Below, piece after piece: positions 17,023-59,379 of a DNA stretch of 64,000 bases. The stretch spans positions 1 to 64,000 of IMG/VR virus record IMGVR_UViG_3300031994_000071. One strand, written 5' to 3'. This stretch comes from a virus. Its lineage: Duplodnaviria; Caudoviricetes. The notes beneath the pieces were generated by a model that did no database searches, was not told the origin of the DNA, and saw nothing but the letters and a program-made list of their open reading frames with translations. Both the position numbers and the translations under genes were made by a program. Each line of letters opens with the position of its first letter. Position 1 is the first letter of the stretch.

Positions 17023-17416
17023 GAGGATTGAAATACTCCGGTGGGAGGTGATTTTCCTTTTCGATTACGAGGAGATTAACCGTGGGAGTGTTCTACGGCA
17101 GTTAGTCAACGCCGGTGCTCCCGATTCCGTTCTCCATCGCATCTCCGAGAAAATCGAAGACGGAAATATGGACGAGGGTTTTACCTATCCAAACCCGGAA
17201 CGGCAGATTGCGGTTGTCGGCGTCGGGCACGCATCCTCCGGACCGGAGTTTCTTTCCTCGTTTTGCCACGAATTAAGGCACCTGACAGACGCAATCGCCT
17301 CGGACAAGGGAATTCCCCTCCGAGGCGAGAAAGTGTCTTATTTGACAGGAGAAATATCGCGGAAGGTGGCAGATGCTGTCTGCGTCTTCTCCTGCCCTTA
17401 CTGCCGTCATGAGTAG
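17012..17416 (+). CDS. cassette gene 5, putative zinc metallopeptidase-like protein
   Basis: HExxH motif (CHELRH). Confidence 0.5.
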   Translation: MLFRRIEILRWEVIFLFDYEEINRGSVLRQLVNAGAPDSVLHRISEKIEDGNMDEGFTYPNPERQIAVVGVGHASSGPEFLSSFCHELRHLTDAIASDKGIPLRGEKVSYLTGEISRKVADAVCVFSCPYCRHE

Positions 17417-17625
17417 TCTTCCGGCCCGAGCGCTTCGATGTAGATTCGAGCCGTCGGATAACCGGAGATCATCTGGAAGGCTTCAATGGTCTTCTGCTTC
17501 GGACAGTTCCTTCCTGATTCGATTTTGTAGAGCGCCGTCGGAGTGATTCCGAGCGCCTTGGCCATGGAGCGCTGGGTGATACCCTTGCCCTCCCGGAATT
17601 TCTTGAATACGTTTCCTATGTTCAT
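17407..17625 (-). CDS. XRE-family HTH transcriptional regulator
   Basis: FREGKGITQRSMAKALGITPTALYKIESG. Confidence 0.9.
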   Translation of the reverse strand: MNIGNVFKKFREGKGITQRSMAKALGITPTALYKIESGRNCPKQKTIEAFQMISGYPTARIYIEALGPEDYS

Positions 17626-20133
17626 AGACTGTGCTGGATTTTGCAATCGCGCAGGATGTGCTGCAACTCGTGTACGTAGTTGATATCAATCGACACGTTT
17701 GTATTGTCCTTCGCATATTCGATATGGAAGTACGGAACCTTGGACGGGTATTCGCAGGGCCACCAGGCAATAATCTCCGGCGTGGGGAACTCCATGCCAA
17801 GGCCCTCCTCTGAAAGCGGAATCGGGGCAACATTCTCGCCGTTGCTCACGTATGGACCTGGCTTGTGCGGCCCGGGGTTAAGAGGCTCGTACATGAGCCG
17901 GTCCATCGTGAGACTGACGATACGGGATACGACCATCTTGCCGTAGTACGGAGCAAGAATTAGGTCTCCAAGTTGAAATTCTTCCGGCTTCATTACATCA
18001 TGGCAATTTGCTTGATGACGGCCTCGACAGCATCCTTCTGGTCACGCATTTTCTTCTTGAGGATGCCGTTTGCGTCATTACGGTGGGCCTGCTTTTCAAA
18101 CTGCGGCAGAAGGCGCATTAAGCCCTGGATAATGGCGGGCTTGGAAAGATACTCCACGACCGGCTCTCCTTCCGCGGCCTCGGGCTTCTGGTCATAGGCG
18201 GAGCCGACAAACGTGGACGCCTCATAGGTTCCGGTCAGTTTCACGAAAATCTTGGCCGGTTTCTTCACTTTGGGTTTATCTCCTTGTTCCATAACTTATA
18301 GTTTTTTAAGATAGAATCTGCTCAGCAACTCTTCCGTCACGATGCCCTCACCCTTGAAGGAACGGAGATGCTTGAATATCTCGTTTACGTAGTCCACGTA
18401 GGGCGAGATGTCAGCGAAAAGCAGCGCAAGTCGGGCCATTTCGTTCTCCTGTTCCTGCCAGATCTGCACGTCCTTGTAATTGCGCTTAGATTCGTGCTTG
18501 TAGATGTCCTGCGTCAAGTCCTCATTGAGGATGCAGGCCCTCTTGACGGCTTCCGTCCAACGGTTGAACTTTTGCTTGGTCTCATGGAACATCGGCGTAC
18601 CCCTTCTCGCCAGGCGCCGTTCCGCCTCCCGCAGAACCAGGTCCGTAGCCTGCGACATTATGTAGGCCGTATTCGTGAGGATGCCAATGATATCCTCATC
18701 CGGCAATTTCTCCTGTTCAGTCATTCTCAATAAACTTCCAGCGCAGTATCTGCATGTCATCCGGTAGGCCAAGCCAGCCACCTTCCCATATTCCCGCTAT
18801 CTTCGGAACGTAGATCCACCAGCGTCCGTCGCAGTCGTACATCAGCACAACGTAGCGGCAAAATTCAAGGCCGGAGACCTCACAAAGGTAGTAAAAATTT
18901 CTGGTACTATCGTCCGGTTTCGGAGGATTGTATTCCTTAAAGTTGTGCCATTGATTATTCATGTCTCAGTTCTTTATAGTCTCTGTAAATAATTCCGAGG
19001 CGGGCGCAACGGAGCATCTTATCCTTCGCGCTCAGATACGGGTTATTCTGTTCCACGTCGGCCACAATGCCAAGAGCAACGGCCTCCATGTCAGCCGGGC
19101 TTAATGTTGCTTTTGCCCAGGCGTCTGCTGTTGCTTCAATCATTTTCCCCTCCTATACTCTACTGTAACGAACTCACCGATTCTCAGGTTGTGGCCCGGA
19201 AGGTGTAGCGTGTGGATTATCGAGCCTTCCGGGAAGTTGAAAGACAACTCCACGATGTCATCGTGACACACGTCATACACCATTCCGAGCGCCTTGAAGA
19301 TGGTCTTATCGTCTTCCGGCGCGGCCTTCATCTTCTTACGCCCAAAGAAAAATTCCCTGATACTCATGGCTTCTTGATTCTAAAGATGATATCACATTCT
19401 ACCGGCTCATCCGTCCATTTGACGGCATCGCCAAACATGTCCCGGTGCGGCAATTCCAGTTTGTTGTACGGATTGAAACACCTGCCATGAGGGAACGGGT
19501 TCTCACGGGACCACCAAACGTCGCGGTTACGGGCCGGTTCCTCCCTGAAAAAGTTCTCCTTCTTGTTCCTATCCTTGGCCAGGAAGCCGTGAATCGAGAC
19601 TTCTACGTATTCTTCTTTCTTCTCCTTGTGTGAATGAAAGATGCGGGCAACTGTCTCCTCAGCCCATTCCTTAATCTCCTGTTTCGTCATAAAACGCTTT
19701 TCTTGCGTACCAGGCAGCACGCTCCCGGTACATGTTCGACTTCTTGTTGTAATTGTGCCACGCACGGGCATCGTCTCCGGGGCAGATGCTCCGGTTAACT
19801 CCGTAGCGGATCAGAAGGGCCTCTGCGGCGTAAACTCCAGACAACTCACCCATCTGAAAACAACGGTCCCGGTAATAGCCGGGTTCCTCAATTTTCGCCC
19901 TAAGGCGCGTAACGGTCTTCGGTTTCATCGTCGATAATTTCTACGGTTATTCTTACTCTCTTAAACCGATACTTGTCGAGTTTTGTCGGATCGCCAGGCA
20001 TGGGCATCTTATTAAACGGGAGTGTGATATCACGACCGCTCCGCAAGTGAACTTCCGGACCGATTTGTCTGTCCATGTACTGAAACCCTACAATTTGGGC
20101 TTCACTCTCTGAAATTATTAGTCCTTGACTCAT
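17622..20133 (-). other. array of 9 small coupled hypothetical ORFs (17622-17993, 17993-18292, 18296-18724, 18717-18962, 18955-19143, 19140-19367, 19364-19690, 19671-19928, 19900-20133)
   Basis: Head-to-tail ORFs with overlapping start/stop codons; 17622-17993 resembles 29232-29624 (PIP/VHELQ motifs). Confidence 0.75.
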
Positions 20134-37938: not shown

Positions 37939-39680
37939 TTACACATAGGCCCAAATGGAATTGAAGTCCTGACATACGAAGGCCGCTGCAATCTCCTTGG
38001 CATTGGCCCTCACTTTCTCTACGAATTCGTTGAGGCGCTTGGCACTCTTGCGCTCAGCACCCTCAAGGAAGAAGGTCGTGCTCCCACGATCAGCACCACC
38101 GAAACTAATCATATCCATGTCGCCATCCTTGAAGTGCATCGGGGTGATGTTGATTGGACGGATGGAGAGGTAGTAGCCCCTCTTCTTGTAAAGGTTGGAC
38201 CATGCCTCACCTTTCTGGTAATGCACGTCAAGTTCGATGTGGTTGGCGCCTCCGATTTCGAGGCAGGGTATTCTTACTTTCTGTTCCTGTGTCTTATTCA
38301 TAATCATCACAATAGTATTTGTTATCTATGCTTACTAAAATAGCCATTCCGTTACTTTTAACATGTTCGTACCAGTTTCAGGCAAAGTTCCTTGAACTTC
38401 TTCCCCTGATACTTTATTCTTGTCATGCCGGAATCGCTCTTAATACTGGCGCTCCCTTGGAGAACCAGTCTGTACGATAGCGCAGCGCCCCGGTGAACCT
38501 GCGGGCATCGCCATTGTCAATGAGCATCTGTGCATACTCGCGCAGATCCTCAACGTTGTCCTTGCAGAACTGGACGAACTTATCATCATCGGGCTGCGTG
38601 CCTGCCTCCTTGCATCGGTCCTCATATAAGGCCCACATCTCATCTTGCAGGGCGTGAGCATTCATAACATAGCCATGCCACACAACCTCTGGGTCGCTCC
38701 AGTCGCCATGATAGACGAAACGGAACCCTCGGATGCCCATCCAAAGGGGCCAAATGTCAGATGTCTTTCTCATTGTCGTATTTGTAATTAGGGTTTACCA
38801 TGTGGTCACTCATGTAGCCATCCAAAATGCTCCATGATACTTTCTCACCACTCCGCGTCACTCCGCTCATGGTATATTCTTCAATTCCTTTCGCAGGAAG
38901 AAATCTCCGGTCGGTCTTTATCTCACCCCACAACCCCACCTTCCGACCGGCGTCCACGTCCTGCAACATGCACTTCTCGGCATTGCACCAAGATTCAAAG
39001 TACGTTGAATGAACTCTGTCACCAACGACTTTCCTAACGATGTAAAAATGTGGTGTCATACTATCTCAAGTCAAAGTATAAATCCGCTTTGTCAATGGCA
39101 TCCTCGATGGTGGTTGCACCCTCTATGTGCCACCCTTCGTGCTGCTCAATGAAATCCATCACCTCCATACTGGACGGGTCCACCAGGCAGTGAACCTCAT
39201 CCAAATCAGGACTGATGGCCAAGGATATTTCATTCGGAACCTCGTCCGGCTCGTAGCATCCGTACATCGCCGACTCAATCTCTTCCGAAATCAAGTCACG
39301 CAACGCACGCCACCTGGTCGCATCTCTTAATTTTGCCATATCTCTTTTGCTCTATTGATTATTTTCTCAATCTCCCATTCGACGAAAGCCCCAAACCTGT
39401 CAATGTTGAATTCCGCATCATCCACCCAGCCCTCGTCTTTTCCGTAGTTCCAGATGAAGGCAACCTCCATTTTTCCGCCCTCAGTCACATACACGGCCCA
39501 AATTGCTACCGACTGGTCATTCCGCTCATCGTAATAACTCAGCCCGCCATTGTTGAAAAAGTCCAGGCCCTTTTCGGCGTCATCGCATCCAAGCATTTCC
39601 CTTAAATCGTCCGTGAAATACTTTCCATACTGCTCTACGATCGCCCTGAGTTCCTTTAATTTCTCTTCCATGTTACTCAA
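37939..39680 (-). other. hypothetical ORFs (37939-38310, 38423-38773, 38757-39059, 39061-39339, 39327-39680)
   Basis: Co-oriented ORFs; several are acidic. Confidence 0.72.
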
Positions 39681-39867
39681 ACTTAATCGTTACACGCAGC
39701 CCCAGCGCCTCCGCCCATCTGTACATCATCTTCAAAGTCAGACCGCCACGACCGTTCTCTATCTCACTCAAGCGGGCACGCTCAGCACCCATCCTGCGGG
39801 CCAACTCGCCCAAGGTCACACCGGCATCCAACCGGCGGTCCTTCAATTCCTGTATTACTTGCTCCAT
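39673..39867 (-). CDS. XRE-family HTH protein
   Basis: LKDRRLDAGVTLGELARRMG...RLSEIENG. Confidence 0.9.
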   Translation of the reverse strand: MEQVIQELKDRRLDAGVTLGELARRMGAERARLSEIENGRGGLTLKMMYRWAEALGLRVTIKFE

Positions 39868-39870
39868 GGC

Positions 39871-42800
39871 TCAATAATTTAGATTGTTTGGCATTTCACC
39901 TTCGCTATACAAGTCGTAGGCGAAAACTCTATACTCAAAGAAGTCCGCCCCTATGCGCACGTTGATGGTCTGGCTATCCAAACCGGGACCAGCCCAGGTG
40001 ACGCTATCACGAAACACCTTCAAGAGTTTCACTTCCTCACCGTCACGCCTTGCATCCATAATCAGTTTCGCAACCACCCGTCTCATGTGCTTAACCGCAT
40101 CGGCTACATTCTTGAAAGAATAGTAGCCATCGTGCCAGCCGTGGTCGTTGACCTCAAGCCGGATTTTGTAGATTTGTTGTTTCATATCACAAAGTGTATT
40201 TCACCATACTGGTGCTTAAAATTGTACTTGTCAATTTCCCATATCTCGTCATAGGTGTGACGCAGGCTGTTCTCCGGATACCTGCTCATGCTGTGGAACA
40301 TCGTTCCGGCTCCAGCCCTAAGGTTTTTCACGTTCTGCTCCAAGTCATCGACCGGCTCAGGCAGCGCCCTTGCATGGATGATGATGCTTTTACCTTGGAG
40401 CCACAAATCCTTCGCCATCTTCTCGTCTATCTCGGTCAGTGTCGTGTGTCCTTTGGTCTCCATCGGGCCTCCGGTCACAACGTCATTAACAACAGAAGGA
40501 ATCATGTAGAAGTGCTGCTGCACCTCGCGGTATTCGTGCGTGTACCCGCTCGCCTTCACCTCTCCGCTTTCAATCCTCGGAGCGACGGTTTCTTGTACCG
40601 CTTTCAGAAAGTCCTTTACTTCTTTTTCGGTCGAGAAATAATCCTCGATACCAATAATCCGCCCGTCACTCTTACGGACGAGAACCATTGCAAACTTTTT
40701 CATATTCTCTTGTCAATTCGTTAAATATAATCCAGTTGATTCCGTCGGACCGTCTCGTCTTTGGATAATCACCATTACTTGCACGCTTCAAGATATAAAG
40801 TGCCTCGCCCTCATCCTTGCACTTGAGCGCCTTCATGTCCTCAAGCAGGATTCCAAATTCACGATTCGGATCCGGCTTGGCCAGTGGAATATATCCTTCA
40901 TGCGGGAAATTATGCCTGCCGATATTCCATACCACATACCCGGGAGGGAACGTGTCCACAATCTCGAACTCATCGACACGTCCCCACTTGCTGTCCCTGA
41001 ATTTTTCCATATCAGTAGATGTTTACTATCATTTGTTTGTACGGATAACCGCCAGTGGCCTGCCTGACGCATTCCATCGCCTGCGTCCAGAAGTCACGCA
41101 CCTTCTTCGCAAGGTCCTCGGAATCCTTGAACTTGCTCTTGCGCATCCACTTGCCACCCATCCGCTCGACCGCCTTACGCATGGAGCACATGCACAGGTA
41201 TGATTTCTTTTGGTCTGCATCGGTCAGCCAAATGTGACCACAACTCGACACCTCGAACTTATGTTCTTTCATGTCTATCTTGAGGTCCACATAAATAGAA
41301 TTCTCTGCAATCCCGTTTGGATAGTCGCTTGCATTCAGCGCGTCCAGGCGCACATGTTGCAGATACGGGACGAATGAACCGAACCCGCCACGGACCGGGA
41401 GGGTTTTCAGCCTCATGGCCGCCTTGATGAGTTCAAATTCACTCTTGTACTTTGCGCATTCAACCTCGTGCGCGTCCAGGGCCTGCTTGCTCGGGAAAAC
41501 CTCGCTCAGGCAAATGCTGTGTTGCTTTACGTATTCCATCTTTCTTTTAGTTATTTGTTATCCTTACGCCTCTTTGCAGCCTTTCTTTCTCGTTTCGCTT
41601 TGGCCTTCTCAATGGCCATCTGTTCGCATCGCTCACGACGCGCCCTATCCTCCGGGCTTTCTTTATTCTCAATCACTCTGCCTCGGCCCGAATCGAAATA
41701 ATGCTGGGACTCTGCGAGCATCATTGCGCCCATCAAAGCCAGTTGTTTCATTGCTTGGCGTCCCATAGTCTTAACTGTTAAAATATAACGTTTCTGCCTG
41801 GTTGCTCTCAGCCTCTAAAAAATCATCCTCCGTATAATCGTCCTCGTACTCTTCCGGTTCTTCGTCGCCATCGTACTTATAGTCGTCCGGCATGCCTCCA
41901 CCAAAATAGGTGTCGTCGTCAATATCATGTGCCATCTTTCTTTCAGTTAGTTGTGAAACTCAATCTTTGCATAGTACGGTTTGAAACACCCGTCCAAATA
42001 GAAACTGCACCGGTACTCACCCTTCACCGCGTACACCTTCACGCACCCGCTCTGCCAGCCGTGTGCAAACTCCGGGCATACGAATCCGCCCACCTCCCGG
42101 TAACTCTTAGGCGTCGCACTCTTGGGACCAATCCTACGACGGTTGCCCAGGCTGCTCATGGTCGCTTTGCCATAAGCAACACCGGCCAGGACAAAACCAC
42201 GACCGGTGCTCACTTCGATTCGTGCCATACCCTACGCCTCCACCTTTTCGGTGCTCACCTGCACCTGCCATCTGTCCTCGCTAAAGGTGCGCACGCTCTC
42301 AACCTCGCCCGCCTTCACCATCTCCACGAGGTCGCCCAGAGCAATCTCGCTCTTCGGAATGTAATAGTACGAATAGTCCTTGTTGATGCTTTCAAGGTAC
42401 TTGCTGTCAATCTTTTTCATGATACTTTGTTTTTAGATGGTTTATAACTACCAGAGCACAACGCCCTGTTTTTCTACTATCAGCCGATGATCCGGGGCAC
42501 TCACATACCAGCCAAAGCGCTTGTGGTGCTCCTCGTTCAACGCGTTCTGCATCTCCACGCAATGCCGTTTCCATTGCCTGCGCTCGGCCTCGATGCTCTT
42601 GCCGAATACGGCGTAAATCGCCTTTGCTAAAATCTTTTTCATGGTTCGATAAATACTTTCTTTGTTCCCTTGTAAAATGCCTCGTGGTTCACGTCATCGT
42701 ACTTGTAGCACTCGTACACCTTGTCCGGGGCGTAATAGTACCCACGCACCCACAGCGGGGCATTCTCGTTGTTCGTCAGGCGGAAAAAGTCGCCCTTCTT

Positions 42801-43441
42801 CACCTGCCTGATGGTCGTTGCAGTCATGCCCAGGCCCTCCCGTTCTTGTGGTTCATCCGTTTCTGCCGTTTGTCCCTCCGCCTCATCCGTCCGTCAATCT
42901 CGTTCAAAAGCCGTTCTTCCTCGTCGGCCCACTGAACGCGTGCCATCCGGTCACTCGCCCAGTCAAATTGTGTGTAAGTTTTGCTCATGATTGTACATAT
43001 TTGCTACCGCCCCGGGCCGGGTATAGTTACCCAGCCCAGAGCACGCACTAAGCCTAAAGCCTTTTTATCCTCGCTTAGTCGAGTTTACTTGCTATTGATA
43101 GCCTTCCAATGGGCAGCGCTCGCCCGGCGGAGGTAGTCAAGCACGCGCCCGGGGGTCCATGTGTCCCATGCACGGAATTCCTTTTCGCCCGTTTCGGCGT
43201 TCTTGACCATGCGACCTAATACGCCGTTCTGGCAGTAGTTCGAGCCGTCAAGCCACTGCACGAGGTACGCGGGCGTTACGTCCTTGAACGTAAGGCCATC
43301 TTTGCGGGCTACCTTTTGCAGTTCGGATTTGCCCCAATTCTCGCGGAGCGTGCGCATGCAGGAAGACAAACTTTTGTGCTCGGCGTTGATAAAAGCCTTG
43401 AAATCCTTAACAGAAGCGGAGGTAAACTGAATCTTTGCCAT
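39871..43441 (-). other. first genes of the leftward arm (39871-40185, 40182-40703, 40672-41010, 41012-41539, 41551-41766, 41947-42228, 42232-42420, 42448-42642, 42639-42827, 43085-43441)
   Basis: Co-oriented small ORFs. Confidence 0.72.
41771..41935 (-). CDS. 54-aa highly acidic peptide
   Basis: Hand translation MAHDIDDDTYFGGGMPDDYKYDGDEEPEEYEDDYTEDDFLEAESNQAETLYFNS; fills the gap between neighbours. Confidence 0.65.
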   Translation of the reverse strand: MAHDIDDDTYFGGGMPDDYKYDGDEEPEEYEDDYTEDDFLEAESNQAETLYFNS

Positions 43442-44017
43442 AATTGTAAATGTTTAATTGTTAATTGTTTATAGTTACTAAATTATTTGATTTGTTCAGC
43501 CGTTCGGAGTCGAACCAAACCACTGAATTTGAAGCCGTTCACGCCTAATTGCTTTGCACACTTGAAGCCGTTCAAATGCTGCTGCGAAACCCACTTTTAG
43601 ACGTCGTAAGCCGTTCATTTTACCGCTTTTTCCGGCCCCCGTGAGCGTGTCACTCGCTCACCGCTGCACCAAATGCACCCCCGGGGCCGTTCAGGCGTTG
43701 TTTTTGCGCGGTCGCTCTCCCCGCGTTCGCCCTCCCGGGCTTATTGTAAGCCGTTTTTGTCGGTCCGTGGTGCACTGACTTCCCAAATTTTGAGAAAGTG
43801 CCTAAAGGCATTCGCCCATAGCAAAAGAGCATTTCGCTCGCCCCGTTCGGGTACACTTCGCCTCAAAACCAGGTATCACCCTTTCCGTTCGGCTCGTTCC
43901 AGACTTTTCAAAGACCTATTTTTGGCGTCCTCAGATAACGCCCCCCCCTGAATGGGGGCTATATGTGGGGGAGAATCCCCCCGGGGGCCTCTCTTGCCCG
44001 CCGTCACTGCTATAAAT

Positions 44018-44032
44018 GCAAACGGCGTGCCA
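44018..44032 (-). promoter_or_regulatory. leftward sigma54-type box TGGCAC-GCCGT-TTGC
   Basis: Exact consensus in the non-coding control region. Confidence 0.7.
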
Positions 44033-44118
44033 CAAACGGCACAATATGCCAAAAATAGCGCAAATCTTACACTTTGAAAGAAAAATCTAACATATAATTA
44101 CATATTATAACTAAAATC

Positions 44119-44131
44119 TAACATATTGATT
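44119..44131 (-). promoter_or_regulatory. IHF-consensus site (AATCAA-TATG-TTA)
   Basis: Exact WATCAANNNNTTR on the minus strand. Confidence 0.5.
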
Positions 44132-44166
44132 ATAATTTGTAAGTTTGGCACACCCATTTACTAACA

Positions 44167-44219
44167 CTGACAAAATGGCAGGAACCTGACAATATGGCAG
44201 AAAACTGACAAAATGGCAG
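44167..44219 (+). repeat. three direct repeats CTGACAA(A/T)ATGGCAG, 19-bp period
   Basis: 44167-44181, 44186-44200, 44205-44219; each an imperfect palindrome. Confidence 0.9.
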
Positions 44220-44258
44220 CACTTCTTAAAAAATTTTAAGAACTCGCAACTATTTGAT

Positions 44259-44336
44259 AATCAAGCACTTACAAAGGGCGTAAAAAAGTTACTACGACCG
44301 TCGCAGATACATAACTAATTGATTTTCAAGGGGTTA
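44259..44336 (+). promoter_or_regulatory. two IHF-consensus-like sites (44259-44271 exact; 44324-44336 one mismatch)
   Basis: AATCAA-GCAC-TTA and TTTCAA-GGGG-TTA within the repeat AACTAnTTGATnnTCAAGnnnTTAC; third copy at 44676-44688. Confidence 0.5.
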
Positions 44337-44410
44337 CGGGGGTTTTGAGGCAAAAAAGGGGCGCACCCACATGGGACTATCGTTTATTTTTTTTATTTTT
44401 TTTCTGAGCC

Positions 44411-44425
44411 TGGCACGCTTTTTGC
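44411..44425 (+). promoter_or_regulatory. rightward sigma54-type box TGGCAC-GCTTT-TTGC
   Basis: Exact consensus preceded by T-tracts. Confidence 0.7.
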
Positions 44426-44782
44426 ATTATAAGGCCCCTAGCTGTACCAAAACAGGCACGGATGAATGTTTTTTCTTGGGTTGTATAGAACTACACCACC
44501 CCACCCGACCTTTATCTATTTATTTATCATATACTTGACCCGCTCAATGAAGAAATGTAGTATTATACAAGTTAGGAAATAGGTGCTTATCTGGAGAGGG
44601 GGTAAATGTGTGAATTCTGGGGTATATATAGGGAAATTTTTTACATTTTTTCATCGGGCCTATTCCGCCCTTGATTATCAGCGACTTACGGAATGTAGTT
44701 TTATACCGAATAGGAAACTTTTTGTCATTTTCGTGCCGTTTTCGGTACGTTTTCGGAATCTGCCGCTTGGAATCGTCCAGAA

Positions 44783-45181
44783 TTGGCCCTAAATTTGCAG
44801 GCGGAAAAACGCAAAATTAGGCGCATGGCAAAACAGGTAATTGTGGCCCCAGGTCACGTCTTTGAGAATCTGGAGGAAGCAGCAGCCTTCCTCAACGTCA
44901 CTCCCGGAACTGTTTCGAGGGCGATCCGCGATGTCCGTCCAATCAGCGGAGTCCCGCTCAGGTATGCGCAACGCGTGTACGTGGTGAAGATGAAGAAGCA
45001 GGAGGAATGGGTGGCAGCAGTTATGGACAGCAGCAACAGGCGATACGTGACGGTCGGCCAGTCCCTCAGGAAGATTCCGAAAAAGGATGTGGCCCAGGTG
45101 AAGGACATCACCGCCTCCTGGTACTTCAACTCTGGCACGGAACTTGCAGGGAGGGACGATTCAAAACGAAGTGAATTATGA
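44783..45181 (+). CDS. NUMOD1/HTH-like DNA-binding protein
   Basis: FENLEEAAAFLNVTPGTVSRAIR. Confidence 0.55.
   Translation: MALNLQAEKRKIRRMAKQVIVAPGHVFENLEEAAAFLNVTPGTVSRAIRDVRPISGVPLRYAQRVYVVKMKKQEEWVAAVMDSSNRRYVTVGQSLRKIPKKDVAQVKDITASWYFNSGTELAGRDDSKRSEL
45133..45147 (+). promoter_or_regulatory. sigma54-type box TGGCAC-GGAAC-TTGC
   Basis: Exact consensus, 31 nt from the ATG at 45178. Confidence 0.65.
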
Positions 45182-45768
45182 CGTACCTATTTTTCGACAC
45201 AGAGACAACAGGGCTTCCGAAGAACTACTCGGCGCCCACTACCGACCTCGACAACTGGGGTGCCGCACGACTGGTGCAACTCGGATACATCCTGGAGGAT
45301 GACAAGCAGGGAGTGATATCAAAGGGAAACCTCATCGTCAGGCCGGAAGGATTCGTGATCCCGGAGGCGGCGAGCAACGTGCATGGCATCACGACCGAGG
45401 TGGCCACCGAGAAGGGACTTCCGGCAAAGAAGGTCGTGTACGCCTTCCTCGGACAGGCACGGATTGCCGATGTCCTGGTCGGACACAATGTTGACTACGA
45501 TACTCATGTGGTAGGCTCCGAACTGGTGCGCCACTGGGGAAAGGACTATATCGAGGGGATGCCGGTCGTTGATACCATGAAGTCCAGCGTGGATTTCTGC
45601 AAGATCCCCTCGGCCCGTGGGTACAAGTGGCCCAAACTGATTGAACTCCACAACAAACTCTTCGGGTGCGACTTCGAGGATGCCCATGATGCCATGGCCG
45701 ACATCAGCGCCACCCGGAAGTGCTTCTGGGAGTTGGTGAGACTGGGTATTATCAAGTTAAACCGTTAA
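45178..45768 (+). CDS. DEDDh 3'-5' exonuclease (DnaQ-like)
   Basis: FFDTETTG, GHNVDYD, AHDAMAD. Confidence 0.93.
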   Translation: MTYLFFDTETTGLPKNYSAPTTDLDNWGAARLVQLGYILEDDKQGVISKGNLIVRPEGFVIPEAASNVHGITTEVATEKGLPAKKVVYAFLGQARIADVLVGHNVDYDTHVVGSELVRHWGKDYIEGMPVVDTMKSSVDFCKIPSARGYKWPKLIELHNKLFGCDFEDAHDAMADISATRKCFWELVRLGIIKLNR

Positions 45769-49068: not shown

Positions 49069-49083
49069 TGGCACGCTTTTTGA
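49069..49083 (+). promoter_or_regulatory. sigma54-like box variant TGGCAC-GCTTT-TTGA
   Basis: Same first 14 nt as 44411 and 59319; 28 nt from the ATG at 49111. Confidence 0.5.
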
Positions 49084-49110: not shown

Positions 49111-49365
49111 ATGGAGACTAAGTACAACGTTTGCGACAAAGTGTCGTATTTCAACGATGCCTCTCAGAAGGTTGAGACCAGCACCGTGCAGGGCATCAAG
49201 ATTATCGCCACCAAGGTCCACGCCAATCAGGATGGCGTCGATGTGTGCGATGAGCAGATTGCCATCTACACCCTCAAGAACGGCATCAACACGCCCGAGA
49301 ATACCCTGTTCCCGAGTGAAGCGGCGTGCGTAGAGCACTACAAGGCGCTGTTCGCGTCTATGTAA
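49111..49365 (+). CDS. hypothetical protein
   Basis: KYNVCDKV start; precedes tRNA cluster. Confidence 0.75.
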   Translation: METKYNVCDKVSYFNDASQKVETSTVQGIKIIATKVHANQDGVDVCDEQIAIYTLKNGINTPENTLFPSEAACVEHYKALFASM

Positions 49366-49504: not shown

Positions 49505-49575
49505 AGTCCCGTACCTCAGTGGGAGAGGGGGTGTCGGAAAGATGCCGGTCGCGAGTTCGATTCTCGCCGGGACTT
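49505..49575 (+). tRNA. tRNA-Phe(GAA)-like, atypical (G33)
   Basis: Full cloverleaf; anticodon loop CGGAAAG. Confidence 0.65.
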
Positions 49576-49774
49576 CGAGGTTTCCTGGTAGAAAACGGAG
49601 GTTGCAACCGTCAACACCTTGTCAATTAGGCCAATAATATGGAGCCACGTGGGTCCCTCAAGGTCTGTTGAAACCTACAATCACCCACCGGCCCCGGATG
49701 AAAGCGGACCAGGAGTAATTGTTCATAGCCGCAATTACGGGCATCGGTGACACTCTGGAGAGACGGAGACACAT

Positions 49775-49848
49775 CGCGGGGTAGAGCAGTTGGTAGCACG
49801 CCTGGCTCATAACCAGGACAGTCGCAGGTTCGAGTCCTGCCCCCGCTA
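49775..49848 (+). tRNA. tRNA-Met(CAT) with initiator-like acceptor stem
   Basis: CGCGGGG...CCCCGCTA, loop CTCATAA, anticodon stem CCTGG/CCAGG. Confidence 0.85.
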
Positions 49849-49853
49849 CTAAA

Positions 49854-49936
49854 GCCCTTGTGGCGGAATTGGCAGACGCAACGGACTAAGGATCCGTTTC
49901 CGTAATGGAGTGGGAGTTCGATTCTCCCCGAGGGCA
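49854..49936 (+). tRNA. tRNA-Leu(AAG)
   Basis: Class II cloverleaf with long variable arm; ACGGA-CTAAGGA-TCCGT. Confidence 0.85.
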
Positions 49937-49941
49937 CAAGG

Positions 49942-59279: not shown

Positions 59280-59298
59280 ACGTTCTAAAACCTTGCTT

Positions 59299-59333
59299 GC
59301 GTGTCATTCTTTTTGGAATGGCACGCTTTTTGC
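59299..59333 (+). terminator. intrinsic terminator whose 3' arm is a sigma54 box (59319-59333)
   Basis: GCGTGTCATTC-TTTTTG-GAATGGCACGC then TTTTT; contains TGGCAC-GCTTT-TTGC. Confidence 0.65.
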
Positions 59334-59379
59334 TTATATTTGTATCGGATTTTCTAAAATGGTTATAGAATTAGGAATG

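Follow-up and report, generated by a model that had tools for sequence, protein, structure and literature searches.

The window analysed here is a 64,000-nt stretch of DNA that corresponds to bases 1-64000 of a 75,221-bp phage genome (IMG/VR record IMGVR_UViG_3300031994_000071, rated 100% complete). In this genome, a leftward gene block that extends from ~43.4 kb down to 17.4 kb and a rightward block that extends from ~44.8 to 58.9 kb are separated by a 1.3-kb gap, which contains two outward-facing boxes of the sigma-54 promoter type with an array of three tandem palindromes between them, a candidate enhancer. A replication module forms the rightward arm (small helix-turn-helix (HTH) protein, RNase T-type exonuclease, HNH endonuclease, Dam, dUTPase, three tRNAs, D5-type primase-helicase and helicase), and the leftward arm is made for the most part of small genes without assigned function, with one Cro/CI-type HTH protein among them. 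A DNA search against a phage GenBank collection returned no match, and the closest relatives within bacterial bins were found in rumen Bacteroidales metagenome-assembled genomes (MAGs). Three related phages, G001, G002 and G003, were used for comparisons. The main elements of the gap are the following:

44032 to 44017, minus strand: leftward sigma-54-type -24/-12 box TGGCACGCCGTTTGCA, with a predicted start near 44006.
44167-44219, plus strand: three tandem 15-bp palindromes CTGACAAWATGGCAG with a 19-bp period (copies at 44167, 44186 and 44205), the candidate enhancer.
44220-44253, no strand: AT-rich palindrome block TTAAAAAATTTTAA that adjoins the array, 0.97 identical in G001 and with its core kept in G003.
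44386-44410, plus strand: T-rich block ATTTTTTTTATTTTTTTTCTGAG, directly 5' of the rightward box and kept in all four phages.
44411-44426, plus strand: rightward sigma-54-type -24/-12 box TGGCACGCTTTTTGCA, with a predicted start near 44437.
44784-44799, plus strand: second rightward box TGGCCCTAAATTTGCA, 26 nt 5' of an ATG and identical at 16/16 positions in G001.

The divergent boxes and the three palindromes with their 19-bp period had been reported in an earlier, sequence-only reading of this stretch, and every one of these elements lies where it had been placed. Both divergent boxes are perfect TGGCACG-N4-TTGCA sequences that match 11/11 specified positions of TGGCAC-N5-TTGCW, the GG-N10-GC core included, and they belong to a larger set: with at most one mismatch, TGGCAC-N5-TTGC is found 20 times in the window, compared with 4.6 +/- 2.2 times in shuffled sequences (a ~4-fold difference; no shuffle gave 20), while nine exact copies of TGGCAY-N5-TTGCW are present in the 75-kb genome when base counting predicts ~0.14. 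All nine exact boxes lie on the strand of their own gene block, and six of them end 20-40 nt 5' of an open reading frame (ORF) starting with ATG, as only 5% of random positions do (P ~1e-6). The relatives G001, G002 and G003 carry five, five and two exact boxes, respectively, when a reversed-pattern control gave zero, and a box-to-ATG spacing of 25-38 nt is also seen in these three phages; around the exonuclease gene of more distant relatives of that gene, no boxes were found. A chance origin of the boxes is thus rejected by the shuffles, by the reversed-pattern control and by the start-codon spacing. Judged from their sequences, these boxes are a real, genome-wide class of sigma-54-type promoters, and their enrichment as a class, their gene-proximal positions on the sense strand and their recurrence in relatives uphold the assignment initially made for the two divergent ones. 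These two are nevertheless atypical for the class, since each of them heads a leader, of ~565 nt on the leftward side and of 388 nt on the rightward side: instead of directly serving the first genes of the two arms, they would give rise to long untranslated leaders.

Several variants of this promoter type were also observed. The box at 44784 doubles as a Bacteroidota sigma-A -7 box (TAAATTTG), for which the consensus is TAnnTTTG (PMC9723704). A TTGA variant, TGGCACGCTTTTTGA, is located at 49069-49083 (plus strand), 28 nt 5' of the ATG at 49111, and this TTGA form is also found at the hsp20, htpG and grpE promoters of the host-like bacterium described below. In three leftward boxes (44028-44043 and the 37768 and 35040 regions), the -24 element lies inside an inverted repeat, GTGCY-N6-GGCAC, which is also present at the leftward box of G001. 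Finally, the exact box at 59319 is part of a hairpin with an 11-bp stem that is followed by TTTTTG and located between convergent gene blocks (window 59290-59340), and it is probably a by-product of an intrinsic terminator.

Promoter opening by sigma-54 polymerase requires an AAA+ activator. The sequence-only reading had seen no gene for such a bacterial enhancer-binding protein (bEBP) in the window, and a domain search now extends this observation to the complete 75-kb genome, from which sigma-54 DNA-binding, sigma-54 interaction and bEBP AAA+ domains are all absent. Given this dependence on an AAA+ activator, a conserved array of dyads located 5' of sigma-54 promoters would most simply be an activator site. 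The distance between the array and the leftward box is 134 bp, and that to the rightward box 191 bp. Relative to the predicted leftward start, the site centres are at -168, -187 and -206, and relative to the predicted rightward start they are at -225, -244 and -263; this placement fits that of bEBP enhancers, which consist of tandem dyad sites ~80-250 bp upstream of a sigma-54 promoter. No further such palindrome exists in the 75-kb genome.

Sites of the same kind were found in bacteria, at the chaperone-gene loci that make up our host-side evidence. When 401 Bacteroidales genomes were searched for two such palindromes at 19 bp start-to-start, a single match was obtained, located in G269 in the chromosomal gap 5' of an Hsp20 gene. 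At this locus, AAAA and more palindromes come after the phage 15-mer CTGACAAAATGGCAG, with a TGGCAC-N5-TTGA box 23 bp gene-ward, and the same 15-mer forms the orthologous hsp20 site in G413. The host palindrome, TGACA-N3-TGKCA, of which the phage copies have the TGACA-N3-TGGCA form, occurs in 2-4 tandem copies ~19-23 bp apart, and 61 palindromes were counted in G269, compared with 10 for a reversed control. Intergenic tandem copies precede hsp20, htpG, dnaK, grpE and groES in this genome; at hsp20, htpG, grpE and groES, the arrays end 10-25 bp upstream of a sigma-54 box of the TGGCAN-N5-TTGR type, while no sigma-54-type box was found at dnaK. In a second host-like genome, G016, two palindrome sites at groES are followed 10 bp later by the canonical TGGCACTTCTTTTGCC. 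The site is asymmetric, and its orientation toward the leftward phage box matches its orientation at host hsp20 and htpG. The exact 15-mer is present in 7/25 genomes of the G269 family (control, 0), where, beyond the orthologous hsp20 site, the matches for the most part either seem to lie within genes or are orthologous duplicates. Sequence comparison therefore indicates that the phage array matches chaperone-regulon arrays of the host type in its sequence, its period and its orientation. This agrees with published data: in Flavobacterium psychrophilum, groESL, lon, dnaK and grpE-dnaJ are expressed from sigma-54 promoters whose starts have been mapped (PMC9723704), and the predicted sigma-54 regulon of Bacteroidota is enriched in chaperone genes (PMC12316311); upstream palindromes are not described in either of these two papers.

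As the array is the same site as those found at chaperone promoters, a host stress regulator is a likely binder. A sigma-54 gene (PF04552) is present in 5/5 of the rumen Bacteroidales MAGs that hold the nearest bacterial-bin relatives of the phage, MAGs that may not be the true host. G269 (L114) and G016 (L117) each encode three sigma-54 activators, with the architectures REC-AAA+, AAA+-HTH_8 and REC-AAA+-HTH_8, REC standing for a receiver domain. In both genomes, the REC-AAA+ protein carries no DNA-binding domain, while the AAA+-HTH_8 protein lacks a receiver domain, has a PspF-like layout and is encoded in a conserved operon with lptE. Judging from these domain compositions, either of the two HTH-bearing activators could be the array binder, and the activator without a DNA-binding domain could act on promoters that have no enhancer. 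Autoregulation of a host activator was also considered and dropped, as none of the three activator genes of G269 has a palindrome next to it; in G016, a single palindrome is located within an ORF that neighbours an activator gene.

Taking these observations together, we favour a model in which the array is an enhancer for the host chaperone-regulon activator, placed between two sigma-54 promoters, and we give it a probability of about one half. In this model, the 1.3-kb gap would be the divergent early control region of a rumen Bacteroidales phage, and both outward-facing -24/-12 promoters would be read by the host sigma-54 RNA polymerase. The array would most likely be bound by one of the two HTH-bearing sigma-54 activators of the host, which would assemble on the phage DNA and activate one or both flanking promoters by looping of the 130-260 bp of AT-rich sequence in between, so that early transcription of the phage would follow a protein-stress signal of its host. 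The model makes three suppositions: an activator as the binder, an action of this binder on the flanking promoters, and a real host that is among the bacteria in which these sites occur. A more ambitious version is that much of the phage programme runs on the host sigma-54 polymerase, that a single central enhancer captures the chaperone-regulon activator, that early transcription is both triggered and timed by the protein stress to which infection itself gives rise and that the enhancer-less boxes are fired by the host activator devoid of a DNA-binding domain; this version we consider doubtful and put forward only tentatively.

The comparison with relatives shows which of these elements are conserved and also provides arguments against the enhancer model. 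Homology with G001 runs from 44119 rightward: identity reaches 0.96 for the triple array, 0.97 for the AT-rich palindrome and 0.96 for the T-rich block, and both the rightward box and the 44784 box are identical at 16/16 positions, while the spacers are at 0.35-0.65. The position of the leftward box is occupied in G001 (TGGCACGGGTTGTGCA, one mismatch) and in G002 (TGGCACAGATATTGCA, perfect). G003 retains the array (with a first copy that is a perfect palindrome, TGACAAAATGTCA), the AT-rich palindrome and the T-rich block, and this last element is retained even in G002 and G003, where the rightward box is lost or degenerate.

Five points speak against the enhancer model. First, G003 has the array, yet the GG is gone from both of its flanking boxes, which have become TTGCCG-N5-TTGCA (leftward) and TAGCAC-N5-TTGT (rightward). 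Second, G002 has a perfect leftward box, but neither the array nor the rightward box; array and sigma-54 boxes are therefore separable and do not consistently occur together among the relatives. Third, host arrays are located 10-25 bp from the -24 box, whereas 134 and 191 bp separate the phage array from its two boxes (78 bp on the leftward side in G001), and no palindrome is found near any other sigma-54 box of the phage. Fourth, the strict 15-bp form CTGACA-WWW-TGTCAG is present in only 4/31 evenly sampled Bacteroidales genomes. Fifth, the array, the AT-rich palindrome, the turning point of the GC skew and the adjoining replication genes are also compatible with a replication origin. The tie to a signal-sensing activator of the host that had been suggested is strengthened on one side, as the array equals Bacteroidales chaperone-promoter sites with a host regulator as its likely binder, and weakened on the other, as the array and the boxes are separable in relatives. 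As for the idea that one shared enhancer serves both arms, it is not shown by these data, considering the array without GG boxes in G003, the leftward box without an array in G002 and the other boxes that all lack an array.

We also noticed that the two flanking boxes of G003 read as Bacteroidota sigma-A -7 boxes (TAACTTTG and GATTTTTG). Homologous promoter positions of close relatives thus appear to switch between a sigma-54 box and a sigma-A -7 box (TAnnTTTG), which can be explained by the fact that both box types end in TTTGCA. If true, such switching would show that the control of phage genes is easily rewired among close relatives.

That array and boxes are separable, that the array is identical to host sites and that its distance from the boxes is unlike the host arrangement would all be expected if the array were a regulator sponge, which binds the regulator of the host chaperone regulon and titrates it on the replicating phage genome without controlling the flanking promoters. 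If the titrated regulator was a repressor, host chaperones would be induced; if it was an activator, it would be concentrated on phage DNA. A repressor is however not the expected partner, since sigma-54 promoters are known to be silent without an activator, and in three phages the array is found at a fixed position and in a fixed orientation between the promoters, which a sponge does not account for. We therefore regard a sponge as unlikely.

A second alternative is that the region is a replication origin, in which the repeats would be iterons for a phage initiator, the AT-rich palindrome and the T-rich block would be unwinding elements and divergent transcripts would activate the origin. Consistent with this idea, the array provides what an origin would need, namely three or more directly repeated sites that adjoin AT-rich DNA in the vicinity of replication genes, the replication module begins right next to the region, the cumulative GC skew has its minimum at ~44 kb, more families of co-oriented repeats (motif B, described below, and ACTACA motifs) are found in the same gap, and G003 keeps the array without sigma-54 boxes. 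The repeats of an origin should however be specific to the initiator of the phage itself, while the same tandem palindrome, with identical sites, precedes host chaperone genes; the flip in GC skew is also explained by the flip in transcription direction that takes place here; and the same D5-type primase-helicase is also encoded by G002 (78% identity), which has no array. An origin at the array consequently seems quite improbable to us. We noted separately that GTATAnAACTACA / ATGTAGT motifs, with three copies in the rightward leader and many in G003 (locus L033), could be the iteron array of the actual origin.

Three dyad sites between divergent promoters also evoke an operator of the lambda type, on which a phage HTH repressor or a Cro protein would set the balance between the two arms, and the phage does encode two Cro/CI-type HTH_3 proteins (39673-39867 and 17407-17646) as well as an HTH protein as its first rightward gene. 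Operators of this type lie over promoter cores, though, whereas the array sits at 134 and 191 bp from the two boxes; its sites are identical to host regulatory sites; and no tyrosine-integrase gene (domain PF00589) was found in the phage. Moreover, the HTH protein encoded by the first rightward gene (118 aa) has homologs that are 88% identical in G001, 44% in G002 and 46% in G003, so it has diverged to the same extent in G003, where the array is present, as in G002, where the array is missing. As its divergence does not follow the presence of the array, this small protein was dropped as a candidate array binder, and we hold a lambda-type operator to be very improbable.

Next to the array, the sequence-only reading had described symmetric sites for the integration host factor (IHF). 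The elements concerned are these:

44067-44145, no strand: AT-rich spacer that contains a pair of 29-nt direct repeats and one degenerate motif B copy, at 0.37 identity in G001 (not conserved).
44254-44272, plus strand: motif B copy 1, TTGATAATCAAGCACTTAC, which holds the IHF match formerly reported at 44259-44271.
44319-44337, plus strand: motif B copy 2, TTGATTTTCAAGGGGTTAC, which holds the IHF match at 44324-44336 and is 0.89 identical in G001.

The IHF consensus WATCAANNNNTTR has seven exact matches in the window when 1.9 are expected, and four of the seven are within 44119-44324. These matches are nevertheless embedded in a longer, partly palindromic 19-bp motif, TTGATWWTCAA-N4-TTAC (motif B), which fits the IHF consensus on both strands. 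Motif B is confined to the control region in this phage, in G001 and in G003, with 2-4 copies per phage, and its good copies are all co-oriented in this phage (on the plus strand) and in G001; it was not found in the host chaperone promoters that were fetched. In G001, the IHF core has one or two mismatches, and the recurring unit is the 19-bp motif B. On the protein side, the host-like genomes G269 and G016 have one HU-family gene (PF00216) each and no IHF alpha/beta pair, and a search for a PF00216 gene in the phage found none. With a larger phage-specific motif, co-oriented copies and a single HU-type gene per host-like genome, an IHF identity for these sites is unjustified. Motif B is real and conserved, and neither the name "IHF" nor the word "symmetric" is warranted for it.

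Compared to known systems, the phage region most resembles the sigma-54 promoters (motif SM4) of chaperone and protein-quality-control genes in Bacteroidota (Guerin et al. 2021, PMC9723704; PMC12316311), with which it shares the -24/-12 box. The Bacteroidales chaperone promoters that we examined also have, like the phage, upstream tandem copies of TGACA-N3-TGKCA ~19-23 bp apart. Unlike these promoters, the phage element is found on a genome that encodes neither sigma-54 nor an activator, it is placed between two divergent boxes, and it stands 134 and 191 bp away from them rather than 10-25 bp. The NorR enhancer of E. coli, in the divergent norR-norVW intergenic region, has three tandem dyads for three activator dimers together with an IHF site. 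The phage array is similar in that its three tandem dyads could seat a hexamer, in that it lies in a divergent intergenic region and in that bendable AT-rich DNA separates the sites from the promoter; it differs in being viral, in having only a putative binder and in that a role of IHF is unsupported. In lambda, the origin consists of tandem dyad-symmetric iterons by an AT-rich tract, and OR of three operators between divergent promoters. The phage region recalls both, with dyad repeats ~19 bp apart beside AT-rich DNA and three sites between divergent promoters, but its repeats are host chaperone-promoter sites, they are off the promoter cores, and they are intergenic rather than within an initiator gene.

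Phages are known to have their genes transcribed by way of the main sigma factor of the host, of sigma factors of their own or of their own polymerases. In the literature, we found no published phage with genes behind sigma-54 promoters together with binding sites for a host activator. If the enhancer model is true, a protein-stress pathway of the host would gate the expression of phage genes in a phylum that is dominant in gut and rumen, and the 53-bp triple site would be a compact, high-affinity bait for the regulator of the Bacteroidota chaperone regulon.

The leaders and the first genes of the two arms complete the region:

43085-43441, minus strand: gene at the head of the leftward arm, coding for 118 aa, for which family searches gave no family.
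43442-44006, minus strand: leftward untranslated leader or non-coding RNA of ~565 nt, with six co-oriented GCCGTT repeats (AACGGC in the RNA).
44437-44824, plus strand: rightward untranslated leader of ~388 nt, in which motifs of the GTATAnAACTACA type recur and which also holds motif B copy 3 at 44671-44689.
44825-45181, plus strand: first gene of the rightward replication arm, the 118-aa HTH protein, with weak HTH_1/HTH_17 matches.

The leftward leader contains three exact copies of AAGCCGTTCA and the densest GCCGTT cluster of the genome, and its RNA is moderately structured (fold z = -2.8). It contains no credible ORF, has no Rfam match at E<=1 and shows no protein-level trace of the first leftward gene of G003; no DNA homolog was found in G001-G003, which makes it phage-specific in this comparison. 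In the rightward leader, RNA structure is not significant (z = -0.7), and DNA identity to G001 is 0.75-0.88.

Two further observations concern RNAs encoded by the arms. An Rfam scan of 42500-45500 gave as its only match a Pistol self-cleaving ribozyme (RF02679) at 43002-43084 on the minus strand, outside the 1.3-kb gap and immediately past the first leftward gene, with 56.6 bits for a gathering score of 34.5 (E = 5.7e-9). Within the replication arm, genes for tRNA-Phe, tRNA-Met and tRNA-Leu(AAG) are clustered at window positions 49505-49937 (plus strand), and a near-consensus box, GGGCAC-N5-TTGCA, overlaps the 3' end of the tRNA-Leu gene.

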